Virus genome (UHGV): UHGV-1421865
DNA: 64,000 nucleotides
Origin: a virus
Strand: one strand, 5' to 3'
The notes below the pieces were generated by a model, which ran no database searches, was not told the origin of the DNA, and was given only the letters and a program-made list of their open reading frames with translations. The position numbers were made by a program, and so were the translations under genes. Below are positions 7,084 through 60,228 of this stretch, piece after piece. Numbering within the stretch: the stretch's first letter is position 1; every line of letters begins with the position of its first letter.

Positions 7084-7230
7084 AAAACTCAAGAAAATCT
7101 CGTCTGTATCGCGTCGAAATCTTCTAGCCTTCACATACCCAGGTAAGTACGTTTGGACGCGACAGAGAGGCTAAAAAGTGCCTCTATGGACGTGTAATAG
7201 TTCAGCATACCGGTACACGCAACATAAACT
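7084..7230 (-). repeat. conserved about 150-nt intergenic element, copy A (candidate structured RNA or regulatory module)
   Basis: Outer inverted repeat TCTGTATCGCGTC/GACGCGACAGAGA around inner hairpin; flank GAGGCTAAAAAGTGCCTCTATGG; contains TAcgTTTG. Confidence 0.6.
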
Positions 7231-7259
7231 CGAGAAATCAACGTAGTTTGTGCACAAAA

Positions 7260-7622
7260 TCAGCCTCTCGCCTCGGCATAAACTATATCCTGTTTTGGTA
7301 CATAACGATTTCCTGAAAGCCTTTTACCTTCAAACGCTACACATTTTTGTTTTCTTACTTCGTCCCATACAGGATCCCAAATATCGGTTGCGTGCACATA
7401 ACATACACCTCGCAGTCCTAAAATACCGTCTTTCAAGTTGTAATACTCAGTACAAACATCGTATCCTTTATATTTTGTTGTATCAATATCACGGGCTAGT
7501 GTATCGTTAAGATTTATTCGTAGCACACCAATTGCCTCTTGTATGGTACTATAACAGTATTCTGAGTCATTTATTGCTTTTATTGCCGTAGTTATACTTA
7601 TGTCAGTAAATGGTTTCATCAT
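7260..7622 (-). CDS. hypothetical protein (paralog of 42080..42709), start corrected to MMKPFTD
   Basis: Track ORF N-terminus (MCKVQQKSCV) is a translation of element copy B; C-terminal motif YNLKDGILGLRGV shared with 42080..42709. Confidence 0.4.
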   Translation of the reverse strand: MMKPFTDISITTAIKAINDSEYCYSTIQEAIGVLRINLNDTLARDIDTTKYKGYDVCTEYYNLKDGILGLRGVCYVHATDIWDPVWDEVRKQKCVAFEGKRLSGNRYVPKQDIVYAEARG

Positions 7623-7674
7623 AATTATTTTTCTATAGTATAGTACATTTGTACAGGACAAATCAAAACCTCTA

Positions 7675-7815
7675 AAAATTTGCTCTCTGACGCACGATTT
7701 TTGTTGGACCTTACACATACTAAGGTCACTACATTTGAGTGTGTTAGAGAGCCTTAAAAGTGCCTTTACGAGGACGTTAGGTATTTACATACCAGTGCGC
7801 AAAACAGAAACTGTC
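7675..7815 (-). repeat. conserved about 150-nt intergenic element, copy B
   Basis: CTCTCTGACGCAC...GTGTGTTAGAGAG stem with two G-T positions; inner hairpin GGACCTTA..TAAGGTC; TAcaTTTG motif. Confidence 0.6.
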
Positions 7816-7884
7816 TAAATCAGTGCATTTTACAGAATCTACACGTACAGATTTTTACATATACAACAAATATAAACCGACACA
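7815..7884 (+). promoter_or_regulatory. candidate promoter region upstream of giant gene (AAATCAGTGCA ... CAGATTTTTACATATA)
   Basis: Motif pair also present upstream of 26151 array. Confidence 0.3.
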
Positions 7885-10800
7885 ATGGCACGATCGTTAA
7901 TGGATACAATACGACAACGAGGAATTAGAACACCGTCTGGAGAAGAACCCGGATCCGAGGAACGCCCGTCGCTTGTAGACTCTATTATTTCCGGTGCGTT
8001 GGTGTCTTTGTTGTACGGCGTCGACGTATCACCCCGTGATGGAGACGACTTGTCTCGTCAAAGTCAGGCTCTTGGATCGAACAGAAACTCGTTATATAGT
8101 CTTATCGCAGATATTAAACGTACTCTGGAAAGTAGAAATGACGGTACACAACCTACTCTCGTTGAATTCAGTCCTACAACACAGTCTAAAATGGACAACA
8201 TCGTTAGATCGTTAGATAGACTAATTGATATTAAAGGTGTATTAGATACAACGGCTGTAGAATTAGAGTTTATACGTCGACTTTTAGAAAATTCTAATGT
8301 ATTATCTACATTGCCAGATAACAGAAACAGTATACAGCAATTAGATATTGTATTAAGATCCGACGGTAACGGTATAGATAAGTTGGTCGAGCTACTTGAT
8401 AAACTTAAAAATTTTAATATAGACGATGAAACAGCACAAAGACAGATTGTCGGTTTAACAGAAGTAGCTCGTGTTGTAAATACACTGAGTGATGTCAATA
8501 TAAATAGAGACGTACAAAATAATGTAAGTGTACTAAACGACATTATAAAAAACTTATCTAGTATACAAATACCGTCATCCGACACTAAACAAAAACAAAA
8601 CGCTACAGATTTCGGCGAAAGAATAACCAACATCATAAAAGCAATAAATAAGATATTTGAAGATGATACTTTTAAGAACTTAGCTAACAATATAAAGTCT
8701 ATAGAAGAAATTAAACATAAAAACGACCGCGACACTTTCGGTATCGGTATGATCGTCGGCTTCTTGGCATCTTTATCGGCCTTTATCGACAATGCAAATG
8801 TTATATCTAAAAAGAAAGTAAATAAAGGATTTAACAAGGTTTTAGTAAGCATGTCCTCTGAAATAGTAGATTCCCTATCAAAAGTAGCGCATAATATGGG
8901 ATCTGCAAAAAATGACATACTTGTCGTATCAGAAATGTTTTCCGGGTATGCTTCTTTTGTAGATACTGCATTGAAAATATCAGATAGATCGTTAGTATCG
9001 TTGTTATTGTTACATGTTAAATTAAAACTATCGTCGTCTGTATTTAATAAGGCATTTCTGGAACTTGTAACGTCTATAAAAGACATATCTATACAAATGG
9101 GTACTATCAGTGCCGTTACTAGAAGTGACTATAGACAACAAATCAATAACATTAAAGAAACATATTCGCAATTTAACGATACTATAGAAGCAATCGGTGA
9201 CGTTATTAGTATACGGTCGATGATAAAGACGATGCTGAAGTTGAAAGCGGCTAAGGGTACTGTCGACAGTGTTAATAAACTACTTACAGAAATGTTCACT
9301 GTTAGTATACCCCCGCGGGATGCTATGCAAGATCGTTTAGACTATTATATAGAACTCGCAACCGGTCTAAAACTAGTATTCGACGAATTACGACTAGTCA
9401 ACGACGCGGGTATCGGTAGACTCGACAAGTCCATAAAGAACCTCGTCGGTGCCGTTAAAGGACTAGATGCACTTGATAAAGTCGTCGGTAAGAAGACGGG
9501 TAAGAATGTAGGTCGTTTCATCCGAGGTTTCATGCACACCTTGTCTACTATCGACGAAAATGCCATCAATAATGCAGAGGAAACAAGTAAGACCTTCGCG
9601 TTGGTCGTCGGTGTCGCAGTCGGTGCATTACTCGTCGTTAGTGCAGCGTCCCTACTAATATCTTGGAAAGCTGTAGTAATGTTCGCTGCGGCGTTACCGT
9701 TGTTTATCTTAGGTGTATCGAAAGCGGCAGCGAAGATGAGCGGTCTTGATATTGACGACAGATCTATGAGTGCTTTTACTGATTTTGTTCTATCGTCTAC
9801 AATAGCGATGGCAGTCGGTAGTTTCTTGATGCGTTTTGTCCAACTTACCGACCTTACAATGTTCGTAGGAGGACTTATTGCTATGACAATCGGTGTCGGT
9901 ACGGCATATCGTATTATCTCCGCTATAGCAAATGCAGATACTATAAAGAATGTTGAAGCATTCAACCAGATGGTCTTGATGTCTGGTACAGTATTAGTTA
10001 TAGGTTCTTATATAACACAATATACCAATAAAGACGGTATATATAAGTTCCTCGGTATGCTCGGTGGCTTTACAGCCGGCGTCTCGTTAATCTATTTAGG
10101 ACTAGCAAAGATACTTAAAGACGACGTACTCAATGTATCAGAGCAATTTGTTGTGTTAGTCGCTGTATCAGGTGCTATTATGTTCGCCGGTGCATTGGTA
10201 TCTAAACTAATCGACCCCGTCGGTCTTATAACATTCACTGCATCGTTAGGTGCATTCTTGTTCGCCGTCAGCGGTATCTACATATTGCTGTCGAAGAAGA
10301 TTGGTAAGGAAGCCGTACAGATCGGTCGTGATTTCATGGTCTTGTTAGTCGTCTCGGGTGCTATCTTATTAGGCGCCGGTATGTTAATGCCTCTTGTTAA
10401 TAAAGAAGGTCTTATAACATTTACTGTGACACTCGGACTGTTCCTCTTAGGGGTCGGACTTGTATATAAGATAATGGGGTCTGTAGTCGACGACGCATTA
10501 AAGCACGCTCGTGACTTTACTATCCTCATCGCAGTGTCCGGTGCTGTACTCTTAGCCGGTGGTGCTATATTAGAAGCAATGGGTCCGAAAGGTATCGCAC
10601 ATGTTATACTGTTCGGTGTACTGTTATTCGGTTTTGTATACGGACTAACATGGATATACAAGAAGAATGCTAAAGATATAACCACTGCATTCGGTGTAGC
10701 GACAGGTCTTGCATTGTTAGTTGCTGTGTCCGGTGCTGTACTGTTAGCCGGTGGTGCTATACTTGAATTGATGGGCAAAGAAGGTGCCTGGTATACCGTC

Positions 10801-14029: not shown

Positions 14030-14070
14030 CAATAACAAAATAAGACGGTCTCTGGAATGAACGAGATCGT
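14030..14070. terminator. hairpin terminator after giant gene
   Basis: AATAAGACGgtctc...gagatCGTCTTATTTCAG; stem then T-run. Confidence 0.5.
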
Positions 14071-14109
14071 CTTATTTCAGTTATATATCGACTAAACTCT
14101 AAACGTCCA

Positions 14110-14258
14110 AAAATCTCCTCTCTAACGCACGATTTTTCTTTGACCTTCACTAGGCTAAGCCTAGTATATTTGAGTGCGTTAGAGAGCCTTAAAAGTGCCT
14201 TTACGGGCTTGTAATGTATTTGTACGTCCCTGCCCAAAACAGAAAACGTACAAATCAG
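14110..14258 (-). repeat. conserved about 150-nt intergenic element, copy C
   Basis: CTCTCTAACGCAC...GTGCGTTAGAGAG perfect stem; inner hairpin CTAGGCTAAGCCTAG; TAtaTTTG motif preceded by TTTG 22 nt upstream. Confidence 0.6.
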
Positions 14259-17845: not shown

Positions 17846-18958
17846 TTAATACAGTTCTATACGTAGACCTAACTTATTGGCTTTTAACATCTTAGATGAT
17901 GTAGAGTTTATATCACCCGTGAAGAGTACTTTCGCGTCTGACCAACTGTTTGTTTGAACGTACTGTGGATTCTTCTCCAGAAATTCTTTCTTAGACGCAT
18001 ATTTAGACGGACTACCCGTCAACATCACAGGCACTTGTGTAGTCTTGCTTGTACCGACGTGTAAGTTTGTAAGTTGACACATACCAATGCCGTAGTCAGT
18101 AAGTGCGTTAACCAACGCATTGAATTGCAACCATTTAGGTGATTGGTGATTATAGACCCAACTGTACCCTTCCGATGCGACACCACTGAAATCGGCTTGT
18201 CCAGTACCGATGAACTGCGCACATTTCTTAGCGCATGTGGAACCACATTTGTTGAAATTCAACGACTTGATGATGTCTACTAATGTGATTTGTCGTCGGT
18301 AATTCTTAAACGATTCGGCGGCTTTCTGCCCTCGTTTACCTTTCAACGCTTGTTCTATCTGTTCCGGTCTTACTTGGAGTATATTTGTTAAACTCTCGAA
18401 GTTATGTTGTAAAGTGTCGTACAACGCAGCCGCTACAGACGGACCGATGTTAGGTATCTTCAGAGTTTGTGCAGACGCGATGAACTGCCCACGGTTACTC
18501 ACAAGACCCACCAGATGACAACCTTCTACAACAGCATCATTTGGTAAACTACCGAGGTCCTTTGATGGATTGTCAAGTACAGAATAAAGAAACGGAATAA
18601 TGTCACCGGCTAAGGAAACTTCAATCTCCGTACCTATACCTACTTGATTATCAATAAGATAGCCGTAGTTATGTCCAGAACATTTAGTGACTATTTTATC
18701 AAGTAGTACAACAGGTTCAAAGACAATCACCGGTGTATACTCTCCGGTCTTACCTTGGTTCCATACAATATCTACTACCTTCGTCTTTTGAATTTCCGGA
18801 ACAAATTTCACAGCAACGCAGTCCGACGGTCGAACTTTATCGGTATTCTGTTCTCTGACAGGGAGTATAGGCTTGATAACAAACCCGTCCAGAGCATATT
18901 CACACTCTTCGGTACGGTATTTGTTAAAGTCGTTATATAGTTCTTGTAAGGTACTCAT
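17846..18958 (-). CDS. NAD-dependent DNA ligase, C-terminal polypeptide (NTase motifs IV-V, OB, HhH and BRCT-like regions)
   Basis: Begins inside adenylation domain: LDGFVIKP (motif IV), VAVKF (motif V); start ATG overlaps stop of upstream TS-like gene (TAATG). Confidence 0.7.
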   Translation of the reverse strand: MSTLQELYNDFNKYRTEECEYALDGFVIKPILPVREQNTDKVRPSDCVAVKFVPEIQKTKVVDIVWNQGKTGEYTPVIVFEPVVLLDKIVTKCSGHNYGYLIDNQVGIGTEIEVSLAGDIIPFLYSVLDNPSKDLGSLPNDAVVEGCHLVGLVSNRGQFIASAQTLKIPNIGPSVAAALYDTLQHNFESLTNILQVRPEQIEQALKGKRGQKAAESFKNYRRQITLVDIIKSLNFNKCGSTCAKKCAQFIGTGQADFSGVASEGYSWVYNHQSPKWLQFNALVNALTDYGIGMCQLTNLHVGTSKTTQVPVMLTGSPSKYASKKEFLEKNPQYVQTNSWSDAKVLFTGDINSTSSKMLKANKLGLRIELY

Positions 18959-19926
18959 TATACTGCGATAGGTGCTTTAATAACAGGGGGTGTATAAGAA
19001 CCGTCGAAATGTTTCTTTACCTTTATCTGTCGGCTTTCGTACATCTCCAAAATATAACACAAATAAGCGTCTAAGGACATCGGTACATTCACAGTAGACA
19101 TGGTCATATCCAAGGTGCATTCTACGGTATGATAACATTGCGTCACATAGTCATCGGTATTAGTAAAGAACGAATCGATATATTCCTGTACAGCATCTTT
19201 ATGATTGTCGTAGATATGGAAATTATCGGCGGTATAGTATATATTTCCGCATTTTACTTTATCGATACCATATTTCTTTTTGAACCATTCATGGTTGACC
19301 TTAAAATAGCCGTTTATAAACCAGTTGAACCAAGAACAGAATATGAAATTATACGGCGCACCCAAGAACGCGTCGTTACTGCGAATATGAGCATGTAGGT
19401 TGTGTGTAAGTACTGTATTCCCAGCGTCGTCTGTGTCCAACTGAAATGTAACGTTATATTCGAACATACAAGGTGCCAGTGCCATTTCCGGTAGGTCGTT
19501 CACATTCCAAAGTGAGATAATATGTCGGCGCGAGAATAAATTGTTATTGAAACCTTCAAATAGTTGTTTCAACTGATCAATACCGTTAAAGTTTCGAAAC
19601 TGATAACCGTACGCCTTACCGATAGTACCATCTTCCTGTACCCATTCATCCCAATAGGTAACACCGTGGTCGCGAAGCCACTGTACGTCGGTCCGTCCTT
19701 GCAGCATCCAGAGTAGTTCGGTGAGTGCCATTCGAGGATAAACACGTTTTCCGTTCACCACCATCAGTCGAACTTCGTCGGACGGTGAAGGAGACTGTTC
19801 AAATACAAAGTTGATACCGTAAGAGTTCAACGTACTGATGTCGGTTCTATTCGACATTTTCTGTGTGACAGTCGACAATATGTTAGTAAGCTGTCTTACA
19901 TAGTCTGTTTCAAATAGTTGTGTCAT
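18958..19926 (-). CDS. thymidylate synthase family enzyme (ThyA or dUMP-hydroxymethylase-like) with about 100-aa C-terminal extension
   Basis: LTELLWMLQGRTDV, RRHIISLWNVNDL, MALAPCM (catalytic Cys), PYN (Asn, uracil-specific); 322 aa versus about 260 typical. Confidence 0.75.
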   Translation of the reverse strand: MTQLFETDYVRQLTNILSTVTQKMSNRTDISTLNSYGINFVFEQSPSPSDEVRLMVVNGKRVYPRMALTELLWMLQGRTDVQWLRDHGVTYWDEWVQEDGTIGKAYGYQFRNFNGIDQLKQLFEGFNNNLFSRRHIISLWNVNDLPEMALAPCMFEYNVTFQLDTDDAGNTVLTHNLHAHIRSNDAFLGAPYNFIFCSWFNWFINGYFKVNHEWFKKKYGIDKVKCGNIYYTADNFHIYDNHKDAVQEYIDSFFTNTDDYVTQCYHTVECTLDMTMSTVNVPMSLDAYLCYILEMYESRQIKVKKHFDGSYTPPVIKAPIAV

Positions 19927-20602
19927 TGTTTAATGGATATTCTAGTTTATAAAATTTAGGTGTCTTGGGAAGTCCGTACCATTCTCGTTCTGTCCACTTA
20001 CCGTTTTCTAATACTCTATAATCGTATATGATAATGTCTAAATCATCGTCGTATTCGTGAGATGTACTATTCAAGACACCCGATACCATCGAACGAGGAC
20101 TCGAGAACTTATCTTTGTATTTCTCTTCAAATGTCTTCAGTTTTACCAGCACCTCACCACGTATAACTGCCTGTGCACCATATACATAGTAGTCTGGATA
20201 AACCGATCGAATTTGCTTAATAAGGTGGCTACGCAAGTCTTTACCGTAATTCCCGTCGCCCCGAGACGATATGCTGCCAACAGTACCGTTCGCATTGATA
20301 ACACATTCGAAAGAACAACCGTCGAATTTCGGGGTCACTTCTATGGCATTATCACCGACATATTTTTTAATATCTTCTGTATAATTAGAAAAATCATCTA
20401 AGCTATGAACTTGGACCTTGTAGAGGGATCCCATTATAAACGGATGCCGTACAGTATATGTTGTACTGGATTTAGTACCGATATAAGACTTGTTCTCGAG
20501 ACCTAGCTCTTTCTCTAACGCGTCAAATTCTGTGTCAGACATTATCTCCTGCCCATTGTAGTATGCTTCTTTTGCTTTATGGTATAATTCTTCTTTTGTC
20601 AT
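19910..20602 (-). CDS. NAD-dependent DNA ligase, N-terminal polypeptide (domain Ia plus NTase motif I)
   Basis: YYNGQEIMSDTEFDALEKEL (domain Ia), HPFIMGSL, KxDG lysine motif TPKFDGCSF; ends 17 nt after start of TS-like gene. Confidence 0.7.
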   Translation of the reverse strand: MTKEELYHKAKEAYYNGQEIMSDTEFDALEKELGLENKSYIGTKSSTTYTVRHPFIMGSLYKVQVHSLDDFSNYTEDIKKYVGDNAIEVTPKFDGCSFECVINANGTVGSISSRGDGNYGKDLRSHLIKQIRSVYPDYYVYGAQAVIRGEVLVKLKTFEEKYKDKFSSPRSMVSGVLNSTSHEYDDDLDIIIYDYRVLENGKWTEREWYGLPKTPKFYKLEYPLNNDTTI

Positions 20603-20684
20603 CTTATCATCATATAGTTTATACTTTATATAGTATAGTTTACAAGAAAAATCAGCTACTTAAAACATTGTTTTGGGTCTACTT

Positions 20685-20835
20685 TGACAGTTTCTATTTC
20701 GTGTACCGACGTGTACAAATCTAGAATCGTCATAAAGGCACTTTAGAGCTCCTGTATCGCGTCGAAATTATCTAGCCTTACTACAACCAAGGTCAACTAA
20801 TTTGTACGCGATACAGGAGAGATTTTTATTGAGTT
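20685..20835 (+). repeat. conserved about 150-nt intergenic element, copy D (core inverted relative to flanks)
   Basis: Flanks in the same orientation as copies E-H, but the core CCTGTATCGCGTC-gaaattatctagcctt...-CGCGATACAGGA matches copy A core as read on the opposite flank orientation. Confidence 0.55.
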
Positions 20836-20924
20836 TCAAATGGGTACACTGACGCCGTGTGGGACACGTTGTGTGTACCGTCTTGATGCTTTGCATCAAA
20901 TTGTTCACAAAGTGAACATAATTA

Positions 20925-21039: not shown

Positions 21040-21172
21040 TCTCTTGCTCTATTAGTACACGCAACTCGTTGTAAGTAGCAGGTTTTAATTTAGCCGATTT
21101 CGTATTCGATGTGATCTTTAGACGTTCGTTAATGAAATTTTGTAGACTCATTTATTCGCTAGTATTGTTTAT
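21040..21172 (-). pseudogene. DUF285 N-module remnant (truncated after about 44 codons)
   Basis: Translates MSLQNFINERLKITSNTKSAKLKPATYNELRVLIEQEIKNQGPY then stop; no repeats follow. Confidence 0.4.
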
Positions 21173-21810
21173 CAGTCTTTGAATTTTGGTTGAAGTTGTG
21201 GATTAGTTCCCATATTAGGACATTTATCAAATGTCATATAATACTTGATTACTTTCGACACATCCCACTCAGACAAGTCACAATTGAAACGTTCGCAAAA
21301 ATAGAACATATAACTCATATTTTTAACATTGGTGACATTCCAAGAACTTAAATCTACATTTAGCTTTTTACACCAAGAGAACATATCTTCCATGTTTTCT
21401 ACTTTACTAACGTTCCAATTTTCTATACCTTTGCCTTCAAATTTTTTACATTCATAAAACATGAAAGACATGTTCGTTACATTAGAGGTGTTCCAATTTT
21501 CTACTCCATCGCCTCTGAAGTTATCTTGACCTACAAACATGTTTTGCATAGTAGTTACATTTGATGTATTCCACTGGTCAATTTTGATATTTCCGATGTT
21601 TAATTTATAAAACAAACTAACCATATCTGTAATCTCCGATGTATCTATAAAGTTCAAATCGGCGTTCGGACCTTGTTCTTTTAGTTCTTGTTCTATAATA
21701 GATCTGAGTTCGTCTTTTGTTTTAGGTCTCAATCTTAATGGTTGGGTATCGGGCGTAATCTTTAATCGTTCTGTGATTAAACTATCGTGAATGTATCGTG
21801 AAAGTGACAT
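21172..21810 (-). CDS. DUF285-repeat protein; C-terminal 71 aa identical to 26151..26696
   Basis: N-module MSLSRYIHDSLITERLKITPD...; 3' 214 bp identical in inverted orientation to 26478..26694. Confidence 0.6.
   Translation of the reverse strand: MSLSRYIHDSLITERLKITPDTQPLRLRPKTKDELRSIIEQELKEQGPNADLNFIDTSEITDMVSLFYKLNIGNIKIDQWNTSNVTTMQNMFVGQDNFRGDGVENWNTSNVTNMSFMFYECKKFEGKGIENWNVSKVENMEDMFSWCKKLNVDLSSWNVTNVKNMSYMFYFCERFNCDLSEWDVSKVIKYYMTFDKCPNMGTNPQLQPKFKD
21177..21392. repeat. left arm of perfect 214-bp inverted repeat
   Basis: Reverse complement identical to 26478..26694. Confidence 0.8.
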
Positions 21811-41506: not shown

Positions 41507-41867
41507 GTTGATTAAATAGTTGATTTGTGTATTATATAGTCTATTTTATGCTGAGAATCAGTGCATGTGACGTCCAGATTATTAACTATATTTTTGATAC
41601 AGATATGGACATCAAAAACGCACCGAAAAGTAAAATGTCGTTATATAAAGAAAAATATGAATACAACGGTAGTAACAAGTACGACTATGCCGCGAACGGG
41701 GTACTCACCAAAACACTTCCGAAGATACTATTTAAGGGCAATTCCTTGTTCGTTACATTCTTACAACTCATTGACCTTCGTATTATCAACCTACTAAAAT
41801 ACATCGACGAACTTAAAAACTTCAAGTCTGTTTGATACTATTTTGCTCGCATTTTGGTCTGATTTGC

Positions 41868-42020
41868 GCGGTTTCTGTTTTGTGTACTGGTATGCAAATA
41901 CCCAACGTCCACGTAAAGGCACTTTTTAGGCTCTCTGGCGCACTCAAATTAGTTGGGCTTAGTATGTGTAAGGTCCAACAAAAATCGTGCGTTACAGGGC
42001 AAATTTTCTTAGGTTTGGAC
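41868..42020 (+). repeat. conserved about 150-nt intergenic element, copy G
   Basis: Stem GCTCTCTGGCGCAC/GTGCGTTACAGGGC with G-T positions; inner hairpin TTGGgCTTA...TAAGgtCCAA. Confidence 0.6.
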
Positions 42021-42029
42021 TTTAGAAAA

Positions 42030-42079: not shown

Positions 42080-42709
42080 TTATTTCGAAGTGCCATAGAA
42101 ATATAGCACTTCGTCTTCTTTTTGGTCTTGAAGGTACTTATAATATCTCATTGTAATGAATACTCTATCGTCGTGACGTGTAACCTCACAAATCCGAACA
42201 ACACCGTCATCGGAGCGAACAAGATAAAGATCTTTGTTTGTAGTCACGTCAAACGACTTGCCCAGGATAAGCAACGTTTCCTTACCTCGTTTTAGGATGT
42301 ACTCGTCTTCTACGGTGTACACACCAGCGTATATCGTAGTGTACTTTGTTTTCTGGTGGACGATACTATTATATAAGCGTTTTATAAATTGCGTCAAAGT
42401 ATCAAACACATTCATATTATATTGTTTTTTATTTGTACATTGGCTGACTACGAAAGCGCGACACGGAATTCCCACATCATAGAATGTAACGTAGTCTTCG
42501 TTGTCGAAAATTCTAGTAACACCGCGTAGTTCTAAGATACCGTCTTCTAACTGATAATAAAACGAACTGATTTCATACCAACCGCTATCGCTATTAGTTA
42601 TAGTTGTCAATGTTGGTGTTCCTAACTTTAACAGAGCTGCCGCTTCATGTATGCTATAACAAGGTCTCTCTTTGTTATTGATGAGTTCAATTGCTTCTTT
42701 CACTTTCAT
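42080..42709 (-). CDS. hypothetical protein (paralog of 7260..7622)
   Basis: YQLEDGILELRGV motif shared. Confidence 0.45.
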   Translation of the reverse strand: MKVKEAIELINNKERPCYSIHEAAALLKLGTPTLTTITNSDSGWYEISSFYYQLEDGILELRGVTRIFDNEDYVTFYDVGIPCRAFVVSQCTNKKQYNMNVFDTLTQFIKRLYNSIVHQKTKYTTIYAGVYTVEDEYILKRGKETLLILGKSFDVTTNKDLYLVRSDDGVVRICEVTRHDDRVFITMRYYKYLQDQKEDEVLYFYGTSK

Positions 42710-43872: not shown

Positions 43873-44058
43873 TTACAATACGAAATTCAAAAGTCCGAAA
43901 CCGACGACCATCAAGATAATACCACCGATCATACCTACAACAGAAAGACCGTGCACAAACTGGTCCTTCTTACTGAGAAACGGTACAGGACGAATGGAGC
44001 TGAGTGACAGAACTGCCAACAAGGCAATTGCAAACAACGGGAAAATCATAATCATCAT
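43873..44058 (-). CDS. small two-TM membrane protein (family member 1)
   Basis: 61 aa; two hydrophobic helices; upstream mini-ORF ATGTTTCACCGCTCG... Confidence 0.45.
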   Translation of the reverse strand: MMIMIFPLFAIALLAVLSLSSIRPVPFLSKKDQFVHGLSVVGMIGGIILMVVGFGLLNFVL

Positions 44059-44144
44059 GATAAAATAGAATTTGTGCTCTTGTACGAGCGGTGAAACATA
44101 GTTGATTCAATGCAGATATAAAGCGTTACTATGAATTGTCATGT

Positions 44145-44315
44145 TCAGAAAATTACATATACAAAACAGAAACCTACACCCACAGTACCGAGGATAATGC
44201 CAAGACCGGAGAGGACGTACAGGAACACTTCTTCATTTTTGAGGAATTCCGACATACGAACAAAACCAAGTACCAGAGATACCAACAAACCGATTACAAA
44301 CAGAATGAGTGTCAT
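44145..44315 (-). CDS. small two-TM membrane protein (family member 2; 56 aa, manually found)
   Basis: MTLILFVIGLLVSLVLGFVRMSEFLKNEEVFLYVLSGLGIILGTVGVGFCFVYVIF; preceded by conserved cassette. Confidence 0.4.
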   Translation of the reverse strand: MTLILFVIGLLVSLVLGFVRMSEFLKNEEVFLYVLSGLGIILGTVGVGFCFVYVIF

Positions 44316-44520
44316 GATAGAATGTATTTTGTGCTCTTTTTAAGAGCGGTGAAACATTGTCTTTTTGATTACAATACAAAGATAGCAATTTATTTTGAAC
44401 TGTAAAACATTAAGGCAGTTTTTATTTCACCTTTAACGTCTTTTGACGTTTGACTCAATCAGTGTATCGACTGTACTACCGTAGATGGTTCAAGACACAG
44501 TAAATAAATTACTATCGTCT
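44316..44520 (-). repeat. conserved upstream cassette (copy 1) of small membrane-protein genes
   Basis: ACGTC..GACGT hairpin, then GTTCAAAATAAATTGCTATCTTTGTATTGTAATC, then ATGTTTCACCGCTCTTAA. Confidence 0.55.
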
Positions 44521-44649
44521 TCATCTTCGTTACGAGACTTAAAATAGTCCCAACTCGAAACATCAATATCGTCTGTTAATGGTTTATAATGACCCAGTTC
44601 TTGACATTTTATTTCAATCTGAATGTCTTTGAATGTTACCATAATAGAG

Positions 44650-44841
44650 TTATTTTGACAATAACAAAACTACGAGACAAGTGAAGATGATAAGAGGACC
44701 GGCAATTATACCGACACGAGACAGAACGTCCATCCAAAAGTCTTTCTTTAGAAGTGTTTCTTTGGGCAGAACAGAAATCGAAATCAAAAAGAGACCGACG
44801 AAAAATCCAAAGAACACGGACATAATCATAACCATAAGCAT
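44650..44841 (-). CDS. small two-TM membrane protein (family member 3; start at MLMVMIM)
   Basis: 63 aa; upstream CTCTATTATATC-ATG context like other members. Confidence 0.4.
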   Translation of the reverse strand: MLMVMIMSVFFGFFVGLFLISISVLPKETLLKKDFWMDVLSRVGIIAGPLIIFTCLVVLLLSK

Positions 44842-44854
44842 GATATAATAGAGT

Positions 44855-45040
44855 TTACGTGTTAAACACAAAAATAAGGAGATAGAAGAGGATAGCGCAG
44901 AGCGTCCCAAAACCACCCAACATAAAAATTTCAGTCTTGCTGAACATGTTGTTTCCATATTTGATGTTACCATGAATCCAAATGATGCAAGGGGTAAAAC
45001 CAAGAATAACGGCACTGATAAACAAAACAATTTGGTCCAT
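44855..45040 (-). CDS. small two-TM membrane protein (family member 4)
   Basis: 61 aa; preceded by cassette GTTCAAAATAAATTGCTATCTTTATATTGTAATC. Confidence 0.45.
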   Translation of the reverse strand: MDQIVLFISAVILGFTPCIIWIHGNIKYGNNMFSKTEIFMLGGFGTLCAILFYLLIFVFNT

Positions 45041-45171
45041 AATAGAATAACGTCTTTTTGATTACAATATAAAGATAGCAATTTGTTTTTTACACAGAAA
45101 AATTATGTAACTGTTTTAACGTCAGTTCACTGACGTAGTCAGTTTAATGTCAATTAACTAACGTAGATGGT
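45041..45171 (-). repeat. conserved upstream cassette (copy 2, partial)
   Basis: TTAACGTCAGTtcaCTGACGT hairpin plus GTTCAAAATAAATTGCTATCTTTATATTGTAATC. Confidence 0.5.
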
Positions 45172-45387
45172 TCAATTGCAGTTACAAAGTTCAGCACCAT
45201 AAAAAATAACCACAAATCCGACAATCGTAAAACAAAGTCCCAAAATAGTAACAAAACCAATCCAGAAGTTGCTGAAGACCTTACCACCATTTACCTTGTC
45301 CACATTATCGGAAAGCATAAGAGGAAGCGGTGAAAATGAAATCATAAGCCACATGATAAACAAAACAACCTTAAGAAGCATTGTCAT
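45172..45387 (-). CDS. small two-TM membrane protein (family member 5)
   Basis: 71 aa; two hydrophobic segments. Confidence 0.45.
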   Translation of the reverse strand: MTMLLKVVLFIMWLMISFSPLPLMLSDNVDKVNGGKVFSNFWIGFVTILGLCFTIVGFVVIFYGAELCNCN

Positions 45388-45600
45388 AATAGAATAGAGT
45401 TATGCTCTTGTAAGAGCGGTGAAACATTATCTTTTTTGATTACAATATAAAGATAGCAATTTATTTTGAACAAATCACCTGTTATATAGACTTTAACGCT
45501 AGTTAGACTACCGTGAGGTATCTTAACACCAGTAAATCAACTATGTCGATTCATTGACATTAAACCAGTGTAGTTGGTTCAACGTCACTCGACTCTGTCT
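45388..45600 (-). repeat. conserved upstream cassette (copy 3)
   Basis: ATGTTTCACCGCTCTTACAAGAGC (GCTCTTgtaAGAGC hairpin) plus GTTCAAAATAAATTGCTATCTTTATATTGTAATC. Confidence 0.55.
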
Positions 45601-47280: not shown

Positions 47281-47312
47281 ATTTATATTATAGCATTATT
47301 CGCCCGTATAAA

Positions 47313-48029
47313 TCAGTAAGGCATCGTCGGAAATTGTTTATAAAATACTGTATAAACATCTAACTTCGTATTGTCAAATATGCCGTCCATTCTCTTGATA
47401 TTCGATATATCCCAATTTTCAAGACCCTTACCTCTAAACAGTATTGCACCTTCAAACATCCAACGCATGTCCACTACTTTTGATACATTCCATCTTGAGA
47501 TATTACCGTTAAATACCTTCGCTTTGTTGAACATCATGTACATGTACATTACATTACCGGTATCCCAATTTTCAACACAGATTCCAGTGAACGATACTGC
47601 GCTACAAAACATACGAGACATATTCGTCACATTACCGACGTCCCATTTTGAAAGATCACCGTTGAATGACATTGCATCCTCAAACATCTGACTCATGTTC
47701 CATACATTACCGACGTCCCAAGTTGAGATGTTACCAATAAACATGTCACAACCATGGAACATTCCACTCATGTCTTCAACATTCGAAGTGTCCCACTCGT
47801 CGATTTCGACATTTCTAACACCAAGCCCCTTGAACAACTCAGACATATCGGTGATCAACGACGTATCGATGAAATTAAGATCGGCATCCGGCCCTTCCCT
47901 CACCAGTTCACATATTATCAACTCACGTAGTTCAAGTTTCGATGTTGGTTGGGATCGCTGTAAAGATTTAGACTGTGATGTAATACGCAGTCTACTGGGT
48001 CTATTATGTATAGCCATGTCAAACAGCAC
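47313..48029 (-). CDS. DUF285-repeat protein (N-module type MAIHNRPSRLRITS)
   Basis: N-module plus about 8 repeats. Confidence 0.6.
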   Translation of the reverse strand: MLFDMAIHNRPSRLRITSQSKSLQRSQPTSKLELRELIICELVREGPDADLNFIDTSLITDMSELFKGLGVRNVEIDEWDTSNVEDMSGMFHGCDMFIGNISTWDVGNVWNMSQMFEDAMSFNGDLSKWDVGNVTNMSRMFCSAVSFTGICVENWDTGNVMYMYMMFNKAKVFNGNISRWNVSKVVDMRWMFEGAILFRGKGLENWDISNIKRMDGIFDNTKLDVYTVFYKQFPTMPY

Positions 48030-48516
48030 AGAACATAATAATTGTTTTCAAATCTTTTTCTTCAAGCCAATCTGCTAGCACATCAATGTATTCAGTTTGT
48101 ATAGATTTCAAGAACTTATCCAATGTCAGATTATCGTCCAAATCGTAGTAGTCGACAATACCTTCAAAGTCACGTTCGATAAGGGCCTTGAGTATAATAA
48201 AAAAGTCATTTGTTGTAGCGGGATCTGCATACAGTTTGTTAACTTGTTTTACTAGTTCTCCTTTACTATAACCGAAAAGCCGTTCGTTAAAAAACTGAGC
48301 ATCGTAAACCCCGTCGAGGATTCTATGATACAGTTTGATCATCGGGTGATCGTCGGTATAATCCGGAAAGGAATTACTCAACTTTCGTTCGATTTCACTG
48401 TCTGTTCTCTTAGAGTCGTTGAACCAGTCAATCGATTCTTCTGTCAGATACGTAAGAATATCGATGTCTGTTTCATTGAGACGAGAAAGGTTCTCTTTAA
48501 GTTTGTTGCGATTCAT
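48019..48516 (-). CDS. hypothetical protein
   Basis: 165 aa ORF. Confidence 0.4.
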   Translation of the reverse strand: MNRNKLKENLSRLNETDIDILTYLTEESIDWFNDSKRTDSEIERKLSNSFPDYTDDHPMIKLYHRILDGVYDAQFFNERLFGYSKGELVKQVNKLYADPATTNDFFIILKALIERDFEGIVDYYDLDDNLTLDKFLKSIQTEYIDVLADWLEEKDLKTIIMFCAV

Positions 48517-53625: not shown

Positions 53626-53747
53626 ACTTACATATATAATATAGACTGTTATGGTAACAAAATCAGTCTACACCAGTAGTAAAATCAGTGAGTTGTTTGT
53701 TGCTTACATATATAATATAGCGGACTTTGTGAGATAAATCAGTACAA
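53626..53747. repeat. two direct repeats of about 45 bp (CTTACATATATAATATAG...AAATCAGT) in upstream region
   Basis: Copies at about 53626 and about 53702; related to TATAGCGAACTTTGTGAGCAAAATCAGTGCA at 7020. Confidence 0.5.
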
Positions 53748-54129: not shown

Positions 54130-54639
54130 TTATATACCTGCCGGTTTTAACGGACGTGTCATTTTTCTACATTTATAGAACATGTCATCTGATATAATCA
54201 AATTAGGCATTTTCCAATTAGATAGATCTGATTTGAATATCGTACAATGTGAAAACATGCCTATTGTATCTATTACACTCTCAGGTCGCCACGACGACAG
54301 ATCAGAATTAAATAAATTACAATCGTAAAACATGTGAGACATAGATTCTACGTTTGAAACGTCCCAACCAGACAGATCACAGTTGAATGCAGCATGTTCA
54401 AAAAACATACTCGTCATGTTCTTCACATTGCTGGTGTTCCACTGGTCGATTTTGATGTTGTGAATAATTAAATATGCAAATAAGTTAGACATGTCTGTGA
54501 TGAGAGACGTGTCGATAAAATTTAGATCTGCATCTGGGCCTTGTTTACTCAATTCGCTAAATACCAAAGATCTAAGTTCGTCTTTTGTTGTGGGTCTTAA
54601 TGTTAATGATTTCGAATTTGATGTGATGTGTATACTCAT
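54130..54639 (-). CDS. DUF285-repeat protein
   Basis: MSIHITSNSKSLTLRPTTKDELRSLVFSELSKQGPDADLNFIDTSLITDMS plus about 5 repeats. Confidence 0.6.
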   Translation of the reverse strand: MSIHITSNSKSLTLRPTTKDELRSLVFSELSKQGPDADLNFIDTSLITDMSNLFAYLIIHNIKIDQWNTSNVKNMTSMFFEHAAFNCDLSGWDVSNVESMSHMFYDCNLFNSDLSSWRPESVIDTIGMFSHCTIFKSDLSNWKMPNLIISDDMFYKCRKMTRPLKPAGI

Positions 54640-54769
54640 TTTACTTTGATATTAGGTATTTTATCATGCGTTTTGAACTACACGTTATTATAATAACTAA
54701 GTATAATAAAAGTGACTTCGATGTTTCCATCAAAGCCACCAAATAATCCACAATTTACACCGTGTATTA

Positions 54770-55931: not shown

Positions 55932-56401
55932 TCAGAACGGTCTCAATTGCGGCCAATTTAATTTGCTTGTATCTAATGCACGGCAGTTGTCAAACATACC
56001 AGTTATACCAATCAAATTCCTCGTGTCCCAAACAGACAGGTCACATTTGAAATCAAAACAACAACCGAACATTCTATTCATTCTCCTCACATTCTTTGTG
56101 TTCCAAGTAGATATATCAGTCATAAGCATATCACAACCCATAAACATCCCGTCCATATCAGTGACATTGCTAACGTCCCACTCGTCGATTTTGATGTTCC
56201 GAATATCCAGTTTGTGAAATAATCCGAACATGTCTGTGATCTCTGATGTATCAATTACATATAACACGGTAGTGTTATTAAGTTCAAGTCGGCATCCGGA
56301 CCTTGACGTTCTAATTCAGATCTTATTATAGACTGTAATTGTTCTCTCGATGTAGGTCTCACATAAAGTGATCTTGTATTAGATGTTATGTGAATTGACA
56401 T
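55932..56401 (-). pseudogene. DUF285-family gene disrupted by about 23-bp palindromic insertion
   Basis: N-module MSIHITSNTRSL...QGPDADLN then frame broken by TACATATAACACGGTAGTGTTAT; repeats resume in another frame (track ORF 55932..56267). Confidence 0.5.
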
Positions 56402-56414
56402 AGCTATTTTAATA

Positions 56415-56903
56415 TCATAAAAAGAACCAAACATATATGAAAGTGGCCCAAGTAAGTATACCGATAATCGACTGAACGATAGACATAAACAATGACGTTT
56501 TGTTGGTCGGCTTTATCAGACTGGGTAGTACTAATTGATTACCTTTATACCATTCAGGTAGTTTGTCAAGCGAACAACAAAGATCGAACATGTTACTCAT
56601 GTCTTTCACATTGGATGTGTTCCAAGAACTCAAATCACAATTGAACTCTGTACGAAAAGCAAACATACAAGACATGTTCGTCACATTAGAGACATTCCAC
56701 TGGTCTATCTTGATGTTTCTGACACTGATATACGGATTACAAAACAAAAACGACATGTCGCTGATCTCTTCTGTGTCGATATGATTCAGATCAGCATCTG
56801 GTCCTTGACGTTTCAGTTCTTGTTCTATTATAGACTGTAGTTGTTCTTTCGATGTAGGTCTTATAACAGACGACTTCGCCTGTGAAGTGATGTGTAATGC
56901 CAT
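56415..56903 (-). CDS. DUF285-repeat protein with C-terminal TM anchor
   Basis: MALHITSQAKSS...; tail MSIVQSIIGILTWATFIYVWFFL. Confidence 0.6.
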   Translation of the reverse strand: MALHITSQAKSSVIRPTSKEQLQSIIEQELKRQGPDADLNHIDTEEISDMSFLFCNPYISVRNIKIDQWNVSNVTNMSCMFAFRTEFNCDLSSWNTSNVKDMSNMFDLCCSLDKLPEWYKGNQLVLPSLIKPTNKTSLFMSIVQSIIGILTWATFIYVWFFL

Positions 56904-56937
56904 TATTTGTAGTCGGCTTATACATTCTTATAAAAAT

Positions 56938-57903
56938 TTAACAACCTCTACCACCACAATTGCCCAGAATAGGTTCTGCACTGTAACATTTCGGTTCTCG
57001 TTTCGGTTTGCTGGTTATAGTTACTGTAGTTCGATTGTCTAAATCACGAATCTTTTTAAGATCGATAGACGGGCTGTCCCAATCCAGTTTTATATCACCG
57101 TCTGGGAATATAATGACATCATTCACTTCAAAATAAGTAGAATTGTCTATCAACGTAAACCTTACACCTTTATGAAAGGAGATGGTATTATATCCGTTGT
57201 AGATAACAAGTACTGAATTGCACACATTACAACCGCTTATGTGTACATTTGTACCATATTTATTTCCGTAAGTATCAATTAGATAGCGCGATGTCTTATC
57301 GTCGTTATCCTTCAATGTAAATGTAGACCGTGTACCCGTCGATGTCTTCAGATAGTTTGCACGCAACTGAATATCGAAGTAATCGTAACGTTTAATGTCT
57401 TCGATATATGACAAGAACTTATCGCTATCGACCAAATCCTGAATATGGTCGTTGAGTAAGATATTGATTCGCACCCGCGCATTTGAAGTGACCGCTGCGA
57501 TAATCTCGTCGAAGGTACTAAAATCGGCGTAGTTATGTCCGTAATGACGAGATACATTAAATCCGTCTACAATACCTAAAATCTCATGAAAGATCTCACT
57601 GTCTGGATCGACCTTAGGAAACGACGTGTTTACGTATACATTGTATTTAGTCTTGTCGATACCTTTAATGATTTGGTACAGACTATCCAGATTGTCCAAC
57701 GGTTCGCCACCGGAGATAACAATGTCTTTAATAGACGATACCTTAGAAAGGACACTCTTGATTCGGCTCTTGATCTTTCGAACAGATGCCAGCTCTTTCT
57801 TGTACAGCGACTTTGTCGTACAAAAACTACAATTTTTCGTACAATCCCAAGGTACGAATACCGTCAATGCGAGATTAACTCTACCTGATTTGATGTCAAT
57901 CAT
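56938..57903 (-). CDS. radical SAM enzyme (QueE or activase-like core with about 120-aa C-terminal extension)
   Basis: CTKNCSFC (CX3CX2C) at residues about 21-28, SGGEP SAM-binding motif; Cys-rich C-terminal region. Confidence 0.65.
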   Translation of the reverse strand: MIDIKSGRVNLALTVFVPWDCTKNCSFCTTKSLYKKELASVRKIKSRIKSVLSKVSSIKDIVISGGEPLDNLDSLYQIIKGIDKTKYNVYVNTSFPKVDPDSEIFHEILGIVDGFNVSRHYGHNYADFSTFDEIIAAVTSNARVRINILLNDHIQDLVDSDKFLSYIEDIKRYDYFDIQLRANYLKTSTGTRSTFTLKDNDDKTSRYLIDTYGNKYGTNVHISGCNVCNSVLVIYNGYNTISFHKGVRFTLIDNSTYFEVNDVIIFPDGDIKLDWDSPSIDLKKIRDLDNRTTVTITSKPKREPKCYSAEPILGNCGGRGC

Positions 57904-57906
57904 AAC

Positions 57907-58467
57907 TTAGCACATTTCGAGTTCTTCGAAGATTCTTTCGTAGTCTGTTTTATCTTTAAGACTAGATACGTTCCAATTACGGATAGTATTTACGTCAAAA
58001 CAATAGTTTTCTTCACAAAAAATACCGTCCATGTATTCTACTTTGGACACGTCCCAGTGGCACAAATTAGAATCAAACAGTCCACAGCAATAAAACATAC
58101 TGCGCATGTCCTTCACGTTGCTGACATTCCAGTCGTACAAGTCGGCTCTAAATTCAACATCCTGGAACATACCTTGCATATTCGTGACGTTACTGACGTC
58201 CCACTTATCAATCAGTAGATAGAAACCTTGAAAGTCGTCGAATTTGATAACAAGATCCTTATTCTCCCACGAAATCGCCTGATTGAACACATAAGACATG
58301 TCCGTGATCTTCGATACATCGATGAAGTTGAGATCGATAGTTACAAGACCATATCTGTCATCGTCCTCTTCGATATAGTCATACGCCTCATCGAGTTGAC
58401 GTTGCGTTTCATCTTTGATGATTTGAATGAGCTCTTCTCTGGTTTGTGGTTGATACTTAAATTCCAT
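57907..58467 (-). CDS. divergent DUF285-family protein
   Basis: Degenerate N-module (DLNFIDVSKITDMSYVF) plus 3 repeats WDVSNVTNMQGMF. Confidence 0.5.
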   Translation of the reverse strand: MEFKYQPQTREELIQIIKDETQRQLDEAYDYIEEDDDRYGLVTIDLNFIDVSKITDMSYVFNQAISWENKDLVIKFDDFQGFYLLIDKWDVSNVTNMQGMFQDVEFRADLYDWNVSNVKDMRSMFYCCGLFDSNLCHWDVSKVEYMDGIFCEENYCFDVNTIRNWNVSSLKDKTDYERIFEELEMC

Positions 58468-58563
58468 TGTCGTACATTACTTTAGGCGTTCTCACTTTGT
58501 TTTCTTATATTATATATAGCTTACTTGTACGTACAAATCAATGTGGCAGACTAAAGATCTACA

Positions 58564-59169: not shown

Positions 59170-59300
59170 CACTATTTTAGACACTACTGTAGACTACACA
59201 AGACAATACAGTAGACCCAACAAGACTGTACAAGACAATACAGTAGACCCAACAAGACTGTACAAGACTCGACAAGACTACACAAGATCAAAAAATATCT
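59170..59300. repeat. iteron-like cluster: ACAAGAC(T/A) repeated at least 7 times, including a perfect 31-bp tandem duplication
   Basis: caagacaatacagtagacccaacaagactgta occurs twice in tandem; motif TAGACTAC also present. Confidence 0.7.
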
Positions 59301-59374
59301 GCCAAGCAAAATAAATAATAGAATTTACTTTACCGTAAAACACAGCTATTTCTTGTCCATCAACTACAGCTCTA

Positions 59375-59430
59375 TATAATGTCAATAAATTGACATAGTC
59401 AATTCAATGTCAATAAATCGACATCGTGAT
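59375..59430. promoter_or_regulatory. two copies of palindrome ATGTCAATAAAT(T/C)GACAT
   Basis: Perfect 18-bp palindrome plus imperfect second copy 22 bp away, in a 450-nt non-coding region. Confidence 0.5.
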
Positions 59431-59598
59431 TCAATGAACTATCGTCGGTACCGGATAATTCGTTCAAATCTTGTAATGACGATTCCATAGTCTCCAAGAA
59501 CTCGTCTACGTCCGAACATGTTCTATTAAACAAATTCTCAAATTGTTTCTGAAAATTATTGTAGTACTCTTTAATAAATATAATCGATAGTTCTCATA

Positions 59599-59994
59599 TC
59601 ACAGGAAATAATCGTTTATCACTAAGTCATAATAATCTGGATAAACACAAATTTGTCTGAAGGTATCATTATGACCAACTTGTTCGCCGCTTTCATCAAA
59701 AATCAAATAGCTGAAATCTTCATCGCTATATACTAGCTTACAATCCATGTAATTACCATCGTGTTTAATATAAAAATTGATAGTATCATTGGAGTAAATT
59801 TCCCTACCGTCTTCTAATTCCGATACTAGTATACCAATAGTTTTGTTGTCGTTTACGTCAACTACAACATCTAATCCATTGTATTTATCTTCAATGAAAT
59901 GATATTCGTATTCAGTTTCAGAACTGTATACCTTAACTATTTGACCAAAGTAACTTTTGGAAAAATCACTATAACGATATTTGATATGTAACAT
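59599..59994 (-). CDS. hypothetical protein
   Basis: 131 aa ORF. Confidence 0.4.
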   Translation of the reverse strand: MLHIKYRYSDFSKSYFGQIVKVYSSETEYEYHFIEDKYNGLDVVVDVNDNKTIGILVSELEDGREIYSNDTINFYIKHDGNYMDCKLVYSDEDFSYLIFDESGEQVGHNDTFRQICVYPDYYDLVINDYFL

Positions 59995-60077
59995 AATTAG
60001 GCTGTTTTATGCTGTATAAATAGCAACATTTACAGACAAAATCAGTGTACCGTATAGATTCCTACACATATTTCTAC

Positions 60078-60228
60078 AGTTTCTATTTCGCGTACTGGTA
60101 TATACAAACATAGAATCGACGTAAAGGTACTTTTTAGCCTCTCTGACGCACTCAAATGCACTGACCTTGGTACTACTAAGGTCAAACAAAAATCGTGCGG
60201 TACAGGGCAAATTTTTGTACGTTTTGAA
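60078..60228 (+). repeat. conserved about 150-nt intergenic element, copy H
   Basis: CAGTTTCTATTTCGCGTACTGGTAT...CGTAAAGGTACTTTTTAGCC-TCTCTGACGCAC-[GACCTTgGTAcTACtAAGGTC]-GTGCGGTACAGGG-CAAATTTTTGT. Confidence 0.6.

Follow-up and report, generated by a model that had tools for sequence, protein, structure and literature searches.

The viral genome stretch analysed here, 64,000 nt of UHGV-1421865 (the window), carries a T4-like replication set, comprising a family B DNA polymerase, the large and medium subunits of topoisomerase II, a gp32-like single-stranded DNA-binding protein, an NAD-dependent ligase, a thymidylate synthase, a neck/head-closure protein, a cytosine methylase and a 2045-aa membrane-rich protein. 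Dispersed between its genes are eight copies of a fixed-length, non-coding module of ~170 nt with a nested hairpin, the subject of this work. The best GenBank phage matches of the topoisomerase II are Prevotella Lak megaphages, at 49% amino-acid identity. No GenBank phage matched the window at the nucleotide level and IMG/VR contained no relative; metagenomes contain related contigs of 130–223 kb, one of which, ERZ651108.4, is syntenic with the window at 80–93% nucleotide identity. Related loci in metagenome contigs are named here by an L and a number (L120, L146 and so on). Reading frames in the window fit the standard genetic code, and stop-codon recoding was ruled out as the source of the intergenic gaps, no sign of it having been found. 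A scan for transfer RNAs and transfer-messenger RNAs found none.

We built a covariance model from the eight window copies, which are alignable over ~168 nt, and applied it to the window, the related contigs and databases. In the window the model recovered exactly eight copies, at 149–182 bits, and no ninth, in agreement with the first-pass annotation, which had reported eight copies at these places on both strands and always between genes. All are intergenic, with copies A (7074–7240, 149 bits), B (7655–7822, 175 bits) and C (14090–14257, likewise matched by the model) on the minus strand and copies D (20679–20846), E (33973–34140), F (34286–34453), G (41860–42027) and H (60068–60235) on the plus strand. 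Copy A lies between two co-oriented minus-strand genes, B occupies the divergent gap between a 120-aa gene and the 2045-aa gene, and C turns its 3′ end towards the stop of the 2045-aa gene. D and H are each antisense between two minus-strand genes, H being 6 nt from the stop of the gene at 60241–60612. E and F are the first and second members of a pair between convergent genes, and the 3′ end of G points towards a terminator and the stop of the convergent gene at 42080–42709.

The repetition is far above chance. A 20-mer core, with up to three mismatches, matches the window seven times against 0 expected, and TAAAGGCACTTT matches eight times against 0.28 expected. Related huge-phage metagenome contigs supplied 40 further distinct copies, for a total of 48. 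Outside this clade the element was absent from GenBank phages, IMG/VR and the bacterial genomes searched; 11 pattern matches in the bacterial genomes are at chance level and fail the covariance model, and an initial 14-mer scan for homologues returned chance matches only. From these sequence comparisons, the distribution is best explained by a family that is specific to one lineage, a clade of huge T4-like phages. The number of copies per genome is estimated at 40–60; the sequences analysed are fragments of genomes of at least 200 kb. Protein coding was ruled out, as no reading frame is kept open across copies. An Rfam search, which the first-pass annotation had suggested, gave no match at or above a family gathering threshold in the whole window, and an E-value scan of the E–F region returned noise (E>1). 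The repeat family is real and previously uncatalogued.

The anatomy of the module is given here in the consensus orientation, on the basis of the alignments and the information profile. Nearly all copies are 167–169 nt long, and the exceptions are discrete insertions. The 5′ part, T-rich overall, presents a weak ATTTTrG, the box rYAC-TGATTT and a GTTTCTGTTTyG block (GTTTCTGTTTTG), in that order, and is followed by a 30-nt spacer that is hypervariable in sequence and free of indels. Next comes a near-invariant palindrome, TAAAGGCACTTTA (consensus CrTAAAGGCACTTTwAGG), centred on the 13-bp palindrome TAAAG-GCA-CTTTA. It leads into the nested hairpin, which has a 14-bp outer stem, a variable inner hairpin with CCTT/AAGG as its invariant closing pairs and, between the two, an 11×11 A-rich internal loop; the 5′ loop is conserved as TCAAATG and the A-rich 3′ loop as AAAGAAAAATC. 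Beyond the 3′ arm of the outer stem are (G/C)A(A/G)ATTTTT, ~5 variable nucleotides and GTTTT(GA). The T-run begins ~3 nt past the outer stem and is kept in both stem subtypes described below; a consensus scan for terminators does not call the hairpin and T-run, which this 3-nt gap separates.

Copy F serves as the reference. Its TGATTT box lies at 34286–34291, GTTTCTGTTTTG at 34297–34308, the variable spacer at 34309–34337 and the palindromic core at 34338–34357. The 5′ arm of the outer stem (34356–34369), the loop (34370–34380) and the inner hairpin (34381–34401) are followed by the A-rich loop (34402–34412), the 3′ arm (34413–34426) and AAATTTT (34427–34433). Neither strand of the module's first 58 nt folds significantly (mean z −0.4). 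We rejected a pairing between the 5′ box and the AAAATCG loop, because five copies break it without compensation. A sigma-54-like GG-N10-GC in the core was also set aside: the spacing fits in only ~2/3 of copies, and the start would fall within the stem.

The outer stem exists in two subtypes, split six to two in the window as first annotated. Six copies carry type 1, CTCTnACGCAC/GTGCGTTAsAG, and copies A and D carry type 2, CTGTATCGCG/CGCGATACAG (arm CTGTATCGCGTC). Across 33 copies, 89.5% of outer-stem cells pair, and sliding the partner column lowers this to 47% or less. Across all 48, a set that takes in a more distant lineage whose copies all carry the type-2 stem, the values are 92.9% and at most 55%. 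The covariation score of the 48 copies is 0.231, compared with 0.141±0.010 in shuffles (0/500), and 40 cells show double changes where 11 are expected, in an alignment that was fitted to the covariance model. Compensatory changes occur at 7 of 14 outer-stem pairs. Most double changes trace to one old split between types 1 and 2, and independent events are few, for example a UA/CG change at one pair in two L156/L157 copies, and the series UA-UG-CG and AU-GU-GC. A screen of all column pairs was too noisy for use.

The inner hairpin tells the same story independently, because its sequence changes and it always stays a hairpin. It is rewritten at orthologous sites (C versus L126a), exactly reverse-complemented between F (CCTTAGTAGTACCAAGG) and H (CCTTGGTACTACTAAGG), and enlarged in some copies, with a hairpin retained in every case and complementarity preserved as the first-pass annotation had described. 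The nested hairpin is therefore under selection for pairing. G·T and C·C mismatches are the majority state at three stem positions, and some type-2 copies close the internal bubble (wD, L156:13615). The earlier proposal of a conserved secondary structure consequently holds as far as pairing is concerned. Its extension to a structured-RNA gene is not borne out, given the lack of an Rfam match and of a consistent promoter, the unstructured 5′ 58 nt and a covariation that stems mainly from one split. The alternative offered at the time, a protein-bound hairpin, is possible.

We then considered which strand of the module might be read as RNA. In the outer stems of the first 30 copies, the common subtype shows 36 G·U against 5 A·C on the consensus strand. 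RNAalifold gives a consensus energy of −10.1 kcal/mol for this strand and −3.2 kcal/mol for the reverse, and the T-run points the same way. We give the wobbles less weight, because they are confined to two inherited columns, because G·U and A·C counts are about even in the divergent type-2 copies (per-copy table), and because single-sequence minimum free energies of the hairpin, which range from −18 to −45 kcal/mol, are alike on both strands (p=0.12). These data favour the consensus strand with little weight; the caution of the first-pass annotation that G-T pairs do not settle the strand was fair.

The ordinary promoters of the phage follow rYAC-TGATTT-N16/17-(C)TATAWT, with 11 of 18 regex matches falling in the 13% of the window that is non-coding; minus-strand examples found by regex lie at 7023–7050, 20627–20654, 26006–26033, 53638–53665, 53714–53741 and 60017–60044. 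This layout resembles sigma-70 or T4 middle (Mot-box) promoters and not the Bacteroidota −33/−7 type. Ordinary terminators are hairpins of the form A-run/GAC...GTC/T-run; the automatic terminator finder was too strict, and we read terminator flanks directly from the sequences. The rYAC-TGATTT at the 5′ end of the module is the phage's own −35 box with no −10 downstream: TATAWT is missing at N15–18 after it, and the −10 position reads GYGTAC. Nor was any promoter found at a consistent position relative to the copies.

Terminators sharing the AAGACGATC core adjoin several copies. One, bidirectional, lies at 33923–33960 on the 5′ side of E and, with a second bidirectional terminator at 34457–34491 on the 3′ side of F, bounds the E–F cassette; another, at ~14040–14075, separates copy C from the 2045-aa gene. 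Such hairpins had been described beside most copies. They accompany four of the eight (C, E, F and G), yet these are all four such paired hairpins in the window. Between E and F lies a minus-strand promoter, P2 (34200–34227, TGATTT-N16-TAATAT), conserved in L154 and L155. In all three strains transcription from it would cross E on the reverse strand and stop at the terminator, so that this reverse strand would be its sole product. A promoter directed at F occurs in the window only.

These observations bear directly on the possibility that the copies are stand-alone small RNA (sRNA) genes. In this scheme an RNA of ~130–150 nt from the consensus strand would be transcribed from the 5′ TGATTT box and would comprise an unstructured U-rich 5′ part, the 30-nt variable segment, a single-stranded core and its own terminator hairpin with U-tail. 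The architecture is classical for an sRNA, with its unstructured 5′ 58 nt, strong hairpin and T-run in both subtypes; the 5′ end shares an extended box with real promoters; the RNAalifold energy and common-subtype wobbles favour the consensus strand; and terminators insulate the units, which can be inverted without being lost. In true Lak phages, some intergenic gaps rank with the genome's most strongly expressed parts (10.1101/356790), another point in favour. Against this stand the GYGTAC where a −10 should be, the lack of any other consistently placed promoter, and P2, the sole conserved external promoter, which reads the wrong strand of E. The strand bias vanishes in type-2 copies, and hairpin stability is strand-neutral. 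In addition, 40–60 copies per genome would be unusual, no other part of the window is significantly complementary to the variable segment, and Rfam holds no match. We regard an sRNA gene family as possible but doubtful.

A related and more speculative version treats the estimated 40–60 paralogues as phage RNAs built on one scaffold, a protein-binding core plus the nested hairpin, each with its own 30-nt segment, and hence as a programmable guide-like or decoy family. As one example, mimics of host CRISPR repeats or guides might load into, and mislead, a host or phage effector. A Prevotella CRISPR repeat, GGTTTAATCGTACCTTTATGGAATTGAAAT, is reported to target Lak phages (PMC6784885), and the reverse-strand core GCCTTAAAAGTGCCTTTAyGGGCTTGTwAT (for example 34330–34359) matches it at up to 22 of 30 positions, where the maximum of 300 shuffles is 20. 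This likeness is a weak lead: the 3′ handle of the repeat falls in the variable spacer, where it is unconserved among copies. As guides, the variable spacers gave no significant matches against the window. We consider this version a long shot.

The copies are located where transcription units end, with an excess at convergent junctions. In the window, three of the eight copies occupy two of ~5 convergent junctions, one copy lies in a divergent junction and four are spread over ~80 tandem junctions. In 21 of 25 cases a convergent gene ends opposite the 3′ end of the element, its stop lying 0–70 nt away. About a dozen of these 21 have a canonical terminator in between and at least seven have none; in the latter, the reverse strand of the element therefore belongs to the mRNA of the convergent gene. 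The 5′ end faces the start of a divergent gene in 13 cases, with the promoter of that gene 12–70 nt away and, in five cases, exactly 30–31 nt from the element. In the other 13 cases it faces the end of a co-oriented gene, usually with a terminator. Many copies have a canonical terminator beside them, some on both sides, and outside the element the neighbouring genes retain TGATTT-N16-TATAWT promoters of their own.

Orientation is also biased. In tandem contexts, ~12 independent sites are antisense to the genes and 3 are co-oriented, roughly p=0.04 with site independence taken as approximate. Orientation that follows replication polarity was ruled out, since GC skew just tracks the gene strand. 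A plain terminator of the upstream gene was ruled out as well: only ~3 of ~15 tandem sites have the terminating orientation, and many gene ends have a separate terminator.

Could the hairpin instead be an intercistronic processing or stabilising signal of the kind cut by RNase III in T7? Those sites consist of a lower stem, an internal bubble and an upper stem-loop, and cleavage in the bubble would leave a protective 3′ hairpin on the upstream message. The element likewise has two stems and a bubble that is conserved more than the stems, and many copies follow a stop directly with no other terminator (H, L124a, L132a, L146C), which makes them part of the upstream mRNA. The element is found in either orientation with respect to transcription, however, and a canonical terminator stands between the gene and about half of the copies. 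This reading would leave the 90 nt outside the hairpin unexplained, and some type-2 copies close the bubble. Such a site is improbable as the function of the module.

The first-pass annotation had also noted an exact TAnnTTTG in A, B, C and E. It is there, on the strand opposite the consensus, at CAAATnTA, and we weighed whether the module might be a reverse-strand Bacteroidota promoter cassette, with a −33 TTTG and the −7 TAnnTTTG inside the hairpin, for early transcription of the next gene. The motif is exact at the same reverse-strand position in 14 of 30 copies, within a nearly invariant CATTTGA core; TTTG is present upstream; and about half of the sites have a gene start 12–125 nt further on in that direction. 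The spacing between TTTG and TAnnTTTG is 22–26 nt, however, and only one window copy fits TTTG-N17-23-TAnnTTTG, so that the hint fails for a full promoter. Half of the copies point at a terminator or gene end, and promoters of the TGATTT/TATAWT type already serve the downstream genes. The window contains TAnnTTTG 101 times, against ~70 expected by chance on a rough composition estimate. Of the readings weighed here, this one seems to us the least probable.

Comparison across strains revealed persistence, turnover and exchange. Copies B and C are direct repeats that bracket the 2045-aa gene, and do so in four further strains in which the neighbouring protein is 70–78% identical; orthologues of B occur in L146, L148, L149 and L150. 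Copy A is absent from those four strains. Where L146, L148 and L149 have ~75 nt, the window has A, a TGATTT promoter and a 49-aa membrane open reading frame (ORF; 6829–6978), and the junction shows replacement, not target-site duplication. Sites E/F and G are retained in L154 and L155, and the G site, as well as a site at the end of an 839-aa gene, is occupied also in the distant L156 and L157. Next to the element at site B, the promoter that serves the giant gene is almost 100% conserved across strains; the element cores are conserved too, with spacer and inner loop scrambled. One site can carry different subtypes in different strains (D is type 2 where L126b is type 1; G is type 1 where L120 is type 2), which points to exchange among copies. 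In L155 the ~620-bp E–F cassette has the opposite orientation to that in L154 and the window, the inversion spanning L155:10358–10991 compared with L154:10358–10957 and window 33908–34502; its breakpoints fall at the two flanking AAGACGATC terminators, which are inverted repeats of each other. One copy has decayed (L134:1903, 38 bits).

We found no terminal inverted repeats or target-site duplications of the kind that define miniature inverted-repeat transposable elements, and the ends of the module are not mutual inverted repeats. No HUH or RAYT gene was seen among the proteins scanned, which come from genome fragments only. An origin from IS605-derived PATE or TnpB omega-RNA was ruled out: the truncated TnpB locus in L151 has no match to the element. 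That related phage contig encodes the truncated TnpB (OrfB_IS605, 291 aa) at 2751–3626 and a Ro60/TROVE protein at 6269–7840, and neither locus has an element copy close by.

Insertions into the element were found as well. A 37-nt insert occupies the inner loop of two copies, L122a (L122:10924–11128), an orthologue of copy H, and L129a (L129:1397–1601), and leaves the remainder intact; it folds as two small hairpins, ATTCAC-TGAC-GTGAAT and CAACGC-GTA-GCGTTG. Separately, a 31-nt mini-hairpin, TGGTACACACAACGTGTCCCACACGGTGTTA (core ACGTGTCCCACACG), flanked by TA/TTA, has eight occurrences; seven fall in an element copy or no more than 30 nt away from one, and two are at the identical internal site CACTTTTA^AGG. 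It abuts copy D in the window (20847–20880) and recurs at L121:10919–10936, L129:1628–1645, L131:12718–12731, L134:2000–2017, L154:3598–3615, L155:10818–10835 and L157:14–31. It has no IMG/VR match and looks like a tiny insertion module that targets the element.

A further possibility is that the module acts as DNA, as a site for a phage or host protein. It could be a topoisomerase II or nucleoid-protein site akin to gyrase- or IHF-binding BIMEs, a hotspot for recombination or replication priming, or a recognition site for an HUH enzyme or recombinase that would also mobilise the element. The best-conserved core is a 13-bp palindrome, CCTT/AAGG is invariant in sequence and not just paired, and the fixed-length, free-sequence spacer is what one would look for between two protein contacts. 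Overall, the stems pair alike on both strands, the orientation at the E–F site is free, and the window encodes the phage's own topoisomerase II. Several copies are shielded from transcription between two terminators, and the enrichment at convergent junctions places copies where positive supercoils accumulate. On the other hand, two stem subtypes in one genome would need two specificities or recognition of structure only, the majority G·T and C·C mismatches are odd for symmetric half-sites, and the T-run and tandem orientation bias suggest a strand-specific, transcription-related effect. No candidate protein was identified. A DNA-level site is, in our view, unlikely.

The reading we favour, tentatively, is a lineage-specific extragenic boundary element, similar to REP, ERIC and BOX sequences and spread by recombination. 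It is preferred over an sRNA family because the copies have no dedicated promoter and both strands are exposed to transcription, and over a plain terminator or promoter because orientation and motif spacing fail. From the observed anatomy, selection on pairing, position, turnover and exchange, we infer an action in cis on transcripts, and recombination rather than a dedicated transposase as the means of spread. In such a model, a cis-acting module would occupy "safe" gaps at the ends of transcription units, where the recombination machinery of the phage would copy, exchange and homogenise it. The hairpin could fold in any single strand that traverses it. In the consensus orientation, hairpin and U-run would be polar and terminator-like, as the orientation bias and the hairpin with T-run suggest, so that copies would survive mainly antisense or at convergent junctions; the antisense excess in tandem contexts is as expected of a polar element under selection. 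In the opposite orientation, the module would form a stable hairpin in a 3′ untranslated region or between cistrons. Either way, transcript ends would be defined and protected and neighbouring units insulated.

Several observations weigh against the boundary element. A passive hairpin would not call for such strict conservation of the exact length and of the unpaired blocks TAAAGGCACTTT, TCAAATG, AAAAATCG and GTTTCTGTTT, which extends over strains with neighbouring proteins that are only 67–80% identical. Together with the palindromic core, this conservation points to a specific protein or RNA partner, which the boundary reading does not supply. A purely cis-RNA role is hard to see for copies that terminators shield on both sides, and the bona fide −35-type box at the 5′ end and the conserved reverse-strand promoter of E would fit a transcribed RNA product. 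Neither terminal inverted repeats, target-site duplications nor a mobilising enzyme were found.

Among known systems, the element behaves most like the bacterial REP/BIME, ERIC, BOX and Correia elements and the PeSL cassettes of T4-type phages. Like the bacterial elements, it has many dispersed extragenic non-coding copies, an imperfect palindrome and a modular, mosaic make-up; it is enriched at gene 3′ ends and in convergent gaps, occurs in both orientations, persists at orthologous sites, and has subfamilies and nested insertions. Unlike them, it is phage-borne and strict in length, begins with a promoter-type box, and over half of its 170 nt is non-palindromic conserved sequence; it also has no identified RAYT or transposase partner and none of the terminal repeats or target duplications. 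Rho-independent terminators and sRNA tails share its stable hairpin with a T-run on one strand and a conserved unstructured 5′ region. They differ in that the T-run of the element is set off by 3 nt, its stem encloses ~50 nt with an 11×11 loop, most copies are not downstream of a co-oriented gene, and no promoter was found. As in integron attC sites, an imperfect hairpin lies just past an ORF; its central region is unpaired and its terminal structure varies in length. By our own reading, the arms ...TAAC and GTTA... match at 6/7 positions each what we take to be the attC boxes, RYYYAAC/GTTRRRY. Unlike attC, the copies are highly identical, have a 90-nt conserved flank and adjoin genes with their own promoters, and no cassette arrays or integrase were seen in the window.

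The closest phage-borne counterparts are the PeSL and PmSL sequences of T4-type phages (PMC2839356, PMC4122927). These too are conserved intergenic modules in which a stem-loop is joined to promoter sequence; they border ORF cassettes and occur where close relatives differ by indels and exchanges, the corresponding features here being the A cassette, the B/C direct repeats and the E–F inversion. PeSLs are short, co-oriented with genes and equipped with a complete −35/−10 promoter (PMC2839356, PMC4122927), whereas the element has a −35-type box only, is ~3 times longer, lies mostly antisense and has a nested hairpin distinct from ordinary terminators. This phage does have true PeSL equivalents, in which an AAGAC...GTCTT terminator is combined with a TGATTT-N16-TATAWT promoter, and these are separate units next to the element.

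The element thus provides a concrete, alignable family of 48 copies, with two old subtypes and conserved sites, in the almost unstudied non-coding gaps of huge phages. If it is a boundary or recombination module, it would extend the "mobile regulatory cassettes" described for PeSLs from 170-kb T4 relatives to megaphages and help to explain how gene cassettes are shuffled in these genomes. Should it prove an RNA family or a protein-binding array, it would represent a new clade-specific regulatory layer. In either case the covariance model is a cheap marker for a lineage missing from GenBank phages and IMG/VR.

The window has further features of note. DUF285/BspA-like repeat proteins are encoded by more than 30 paralogous ORFs with 75-nt periodicity, many abutting one another, in zones at 100–4700, 21170–21810, 26150–30840, 34850–40050, 47300–48030, 54130–54640, 56130–58470 and 60240–62190. 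Segments of these genes make up a 332-nt inverted repeat (21164–21495 and 26373–26704, 89% complementary) that flanks the neck-protein and topoisomerase II large-subunit genes and could serve as an inversion substrate. The NAD-dependent DNA ligase (17846–20602, minus strand) is split, its adenylation domain (19910–20602) and OB/C-terminal part (17846–18958) being separated by the thymidylate synthase gene at 18958–19926, and the family B DNA polymerase ORF (719–2239) encodes just 506 aa. In the 453-nt gap by copy H, iteron-like tandem repeats lie at 59179–59291 and 59378–59436 (32 nt × 2.4 copies at 95% identity; 28 nt × 2.1 copies). Finally, a second repeated non-coding cassette on the minus strand at 44040–45480, AAATTGCTATCTTTrTATTGTAATC followed by the hairpin GTTTCACCGCTCTTA...AGAGC, sits upstream of several small membrane ORFs.

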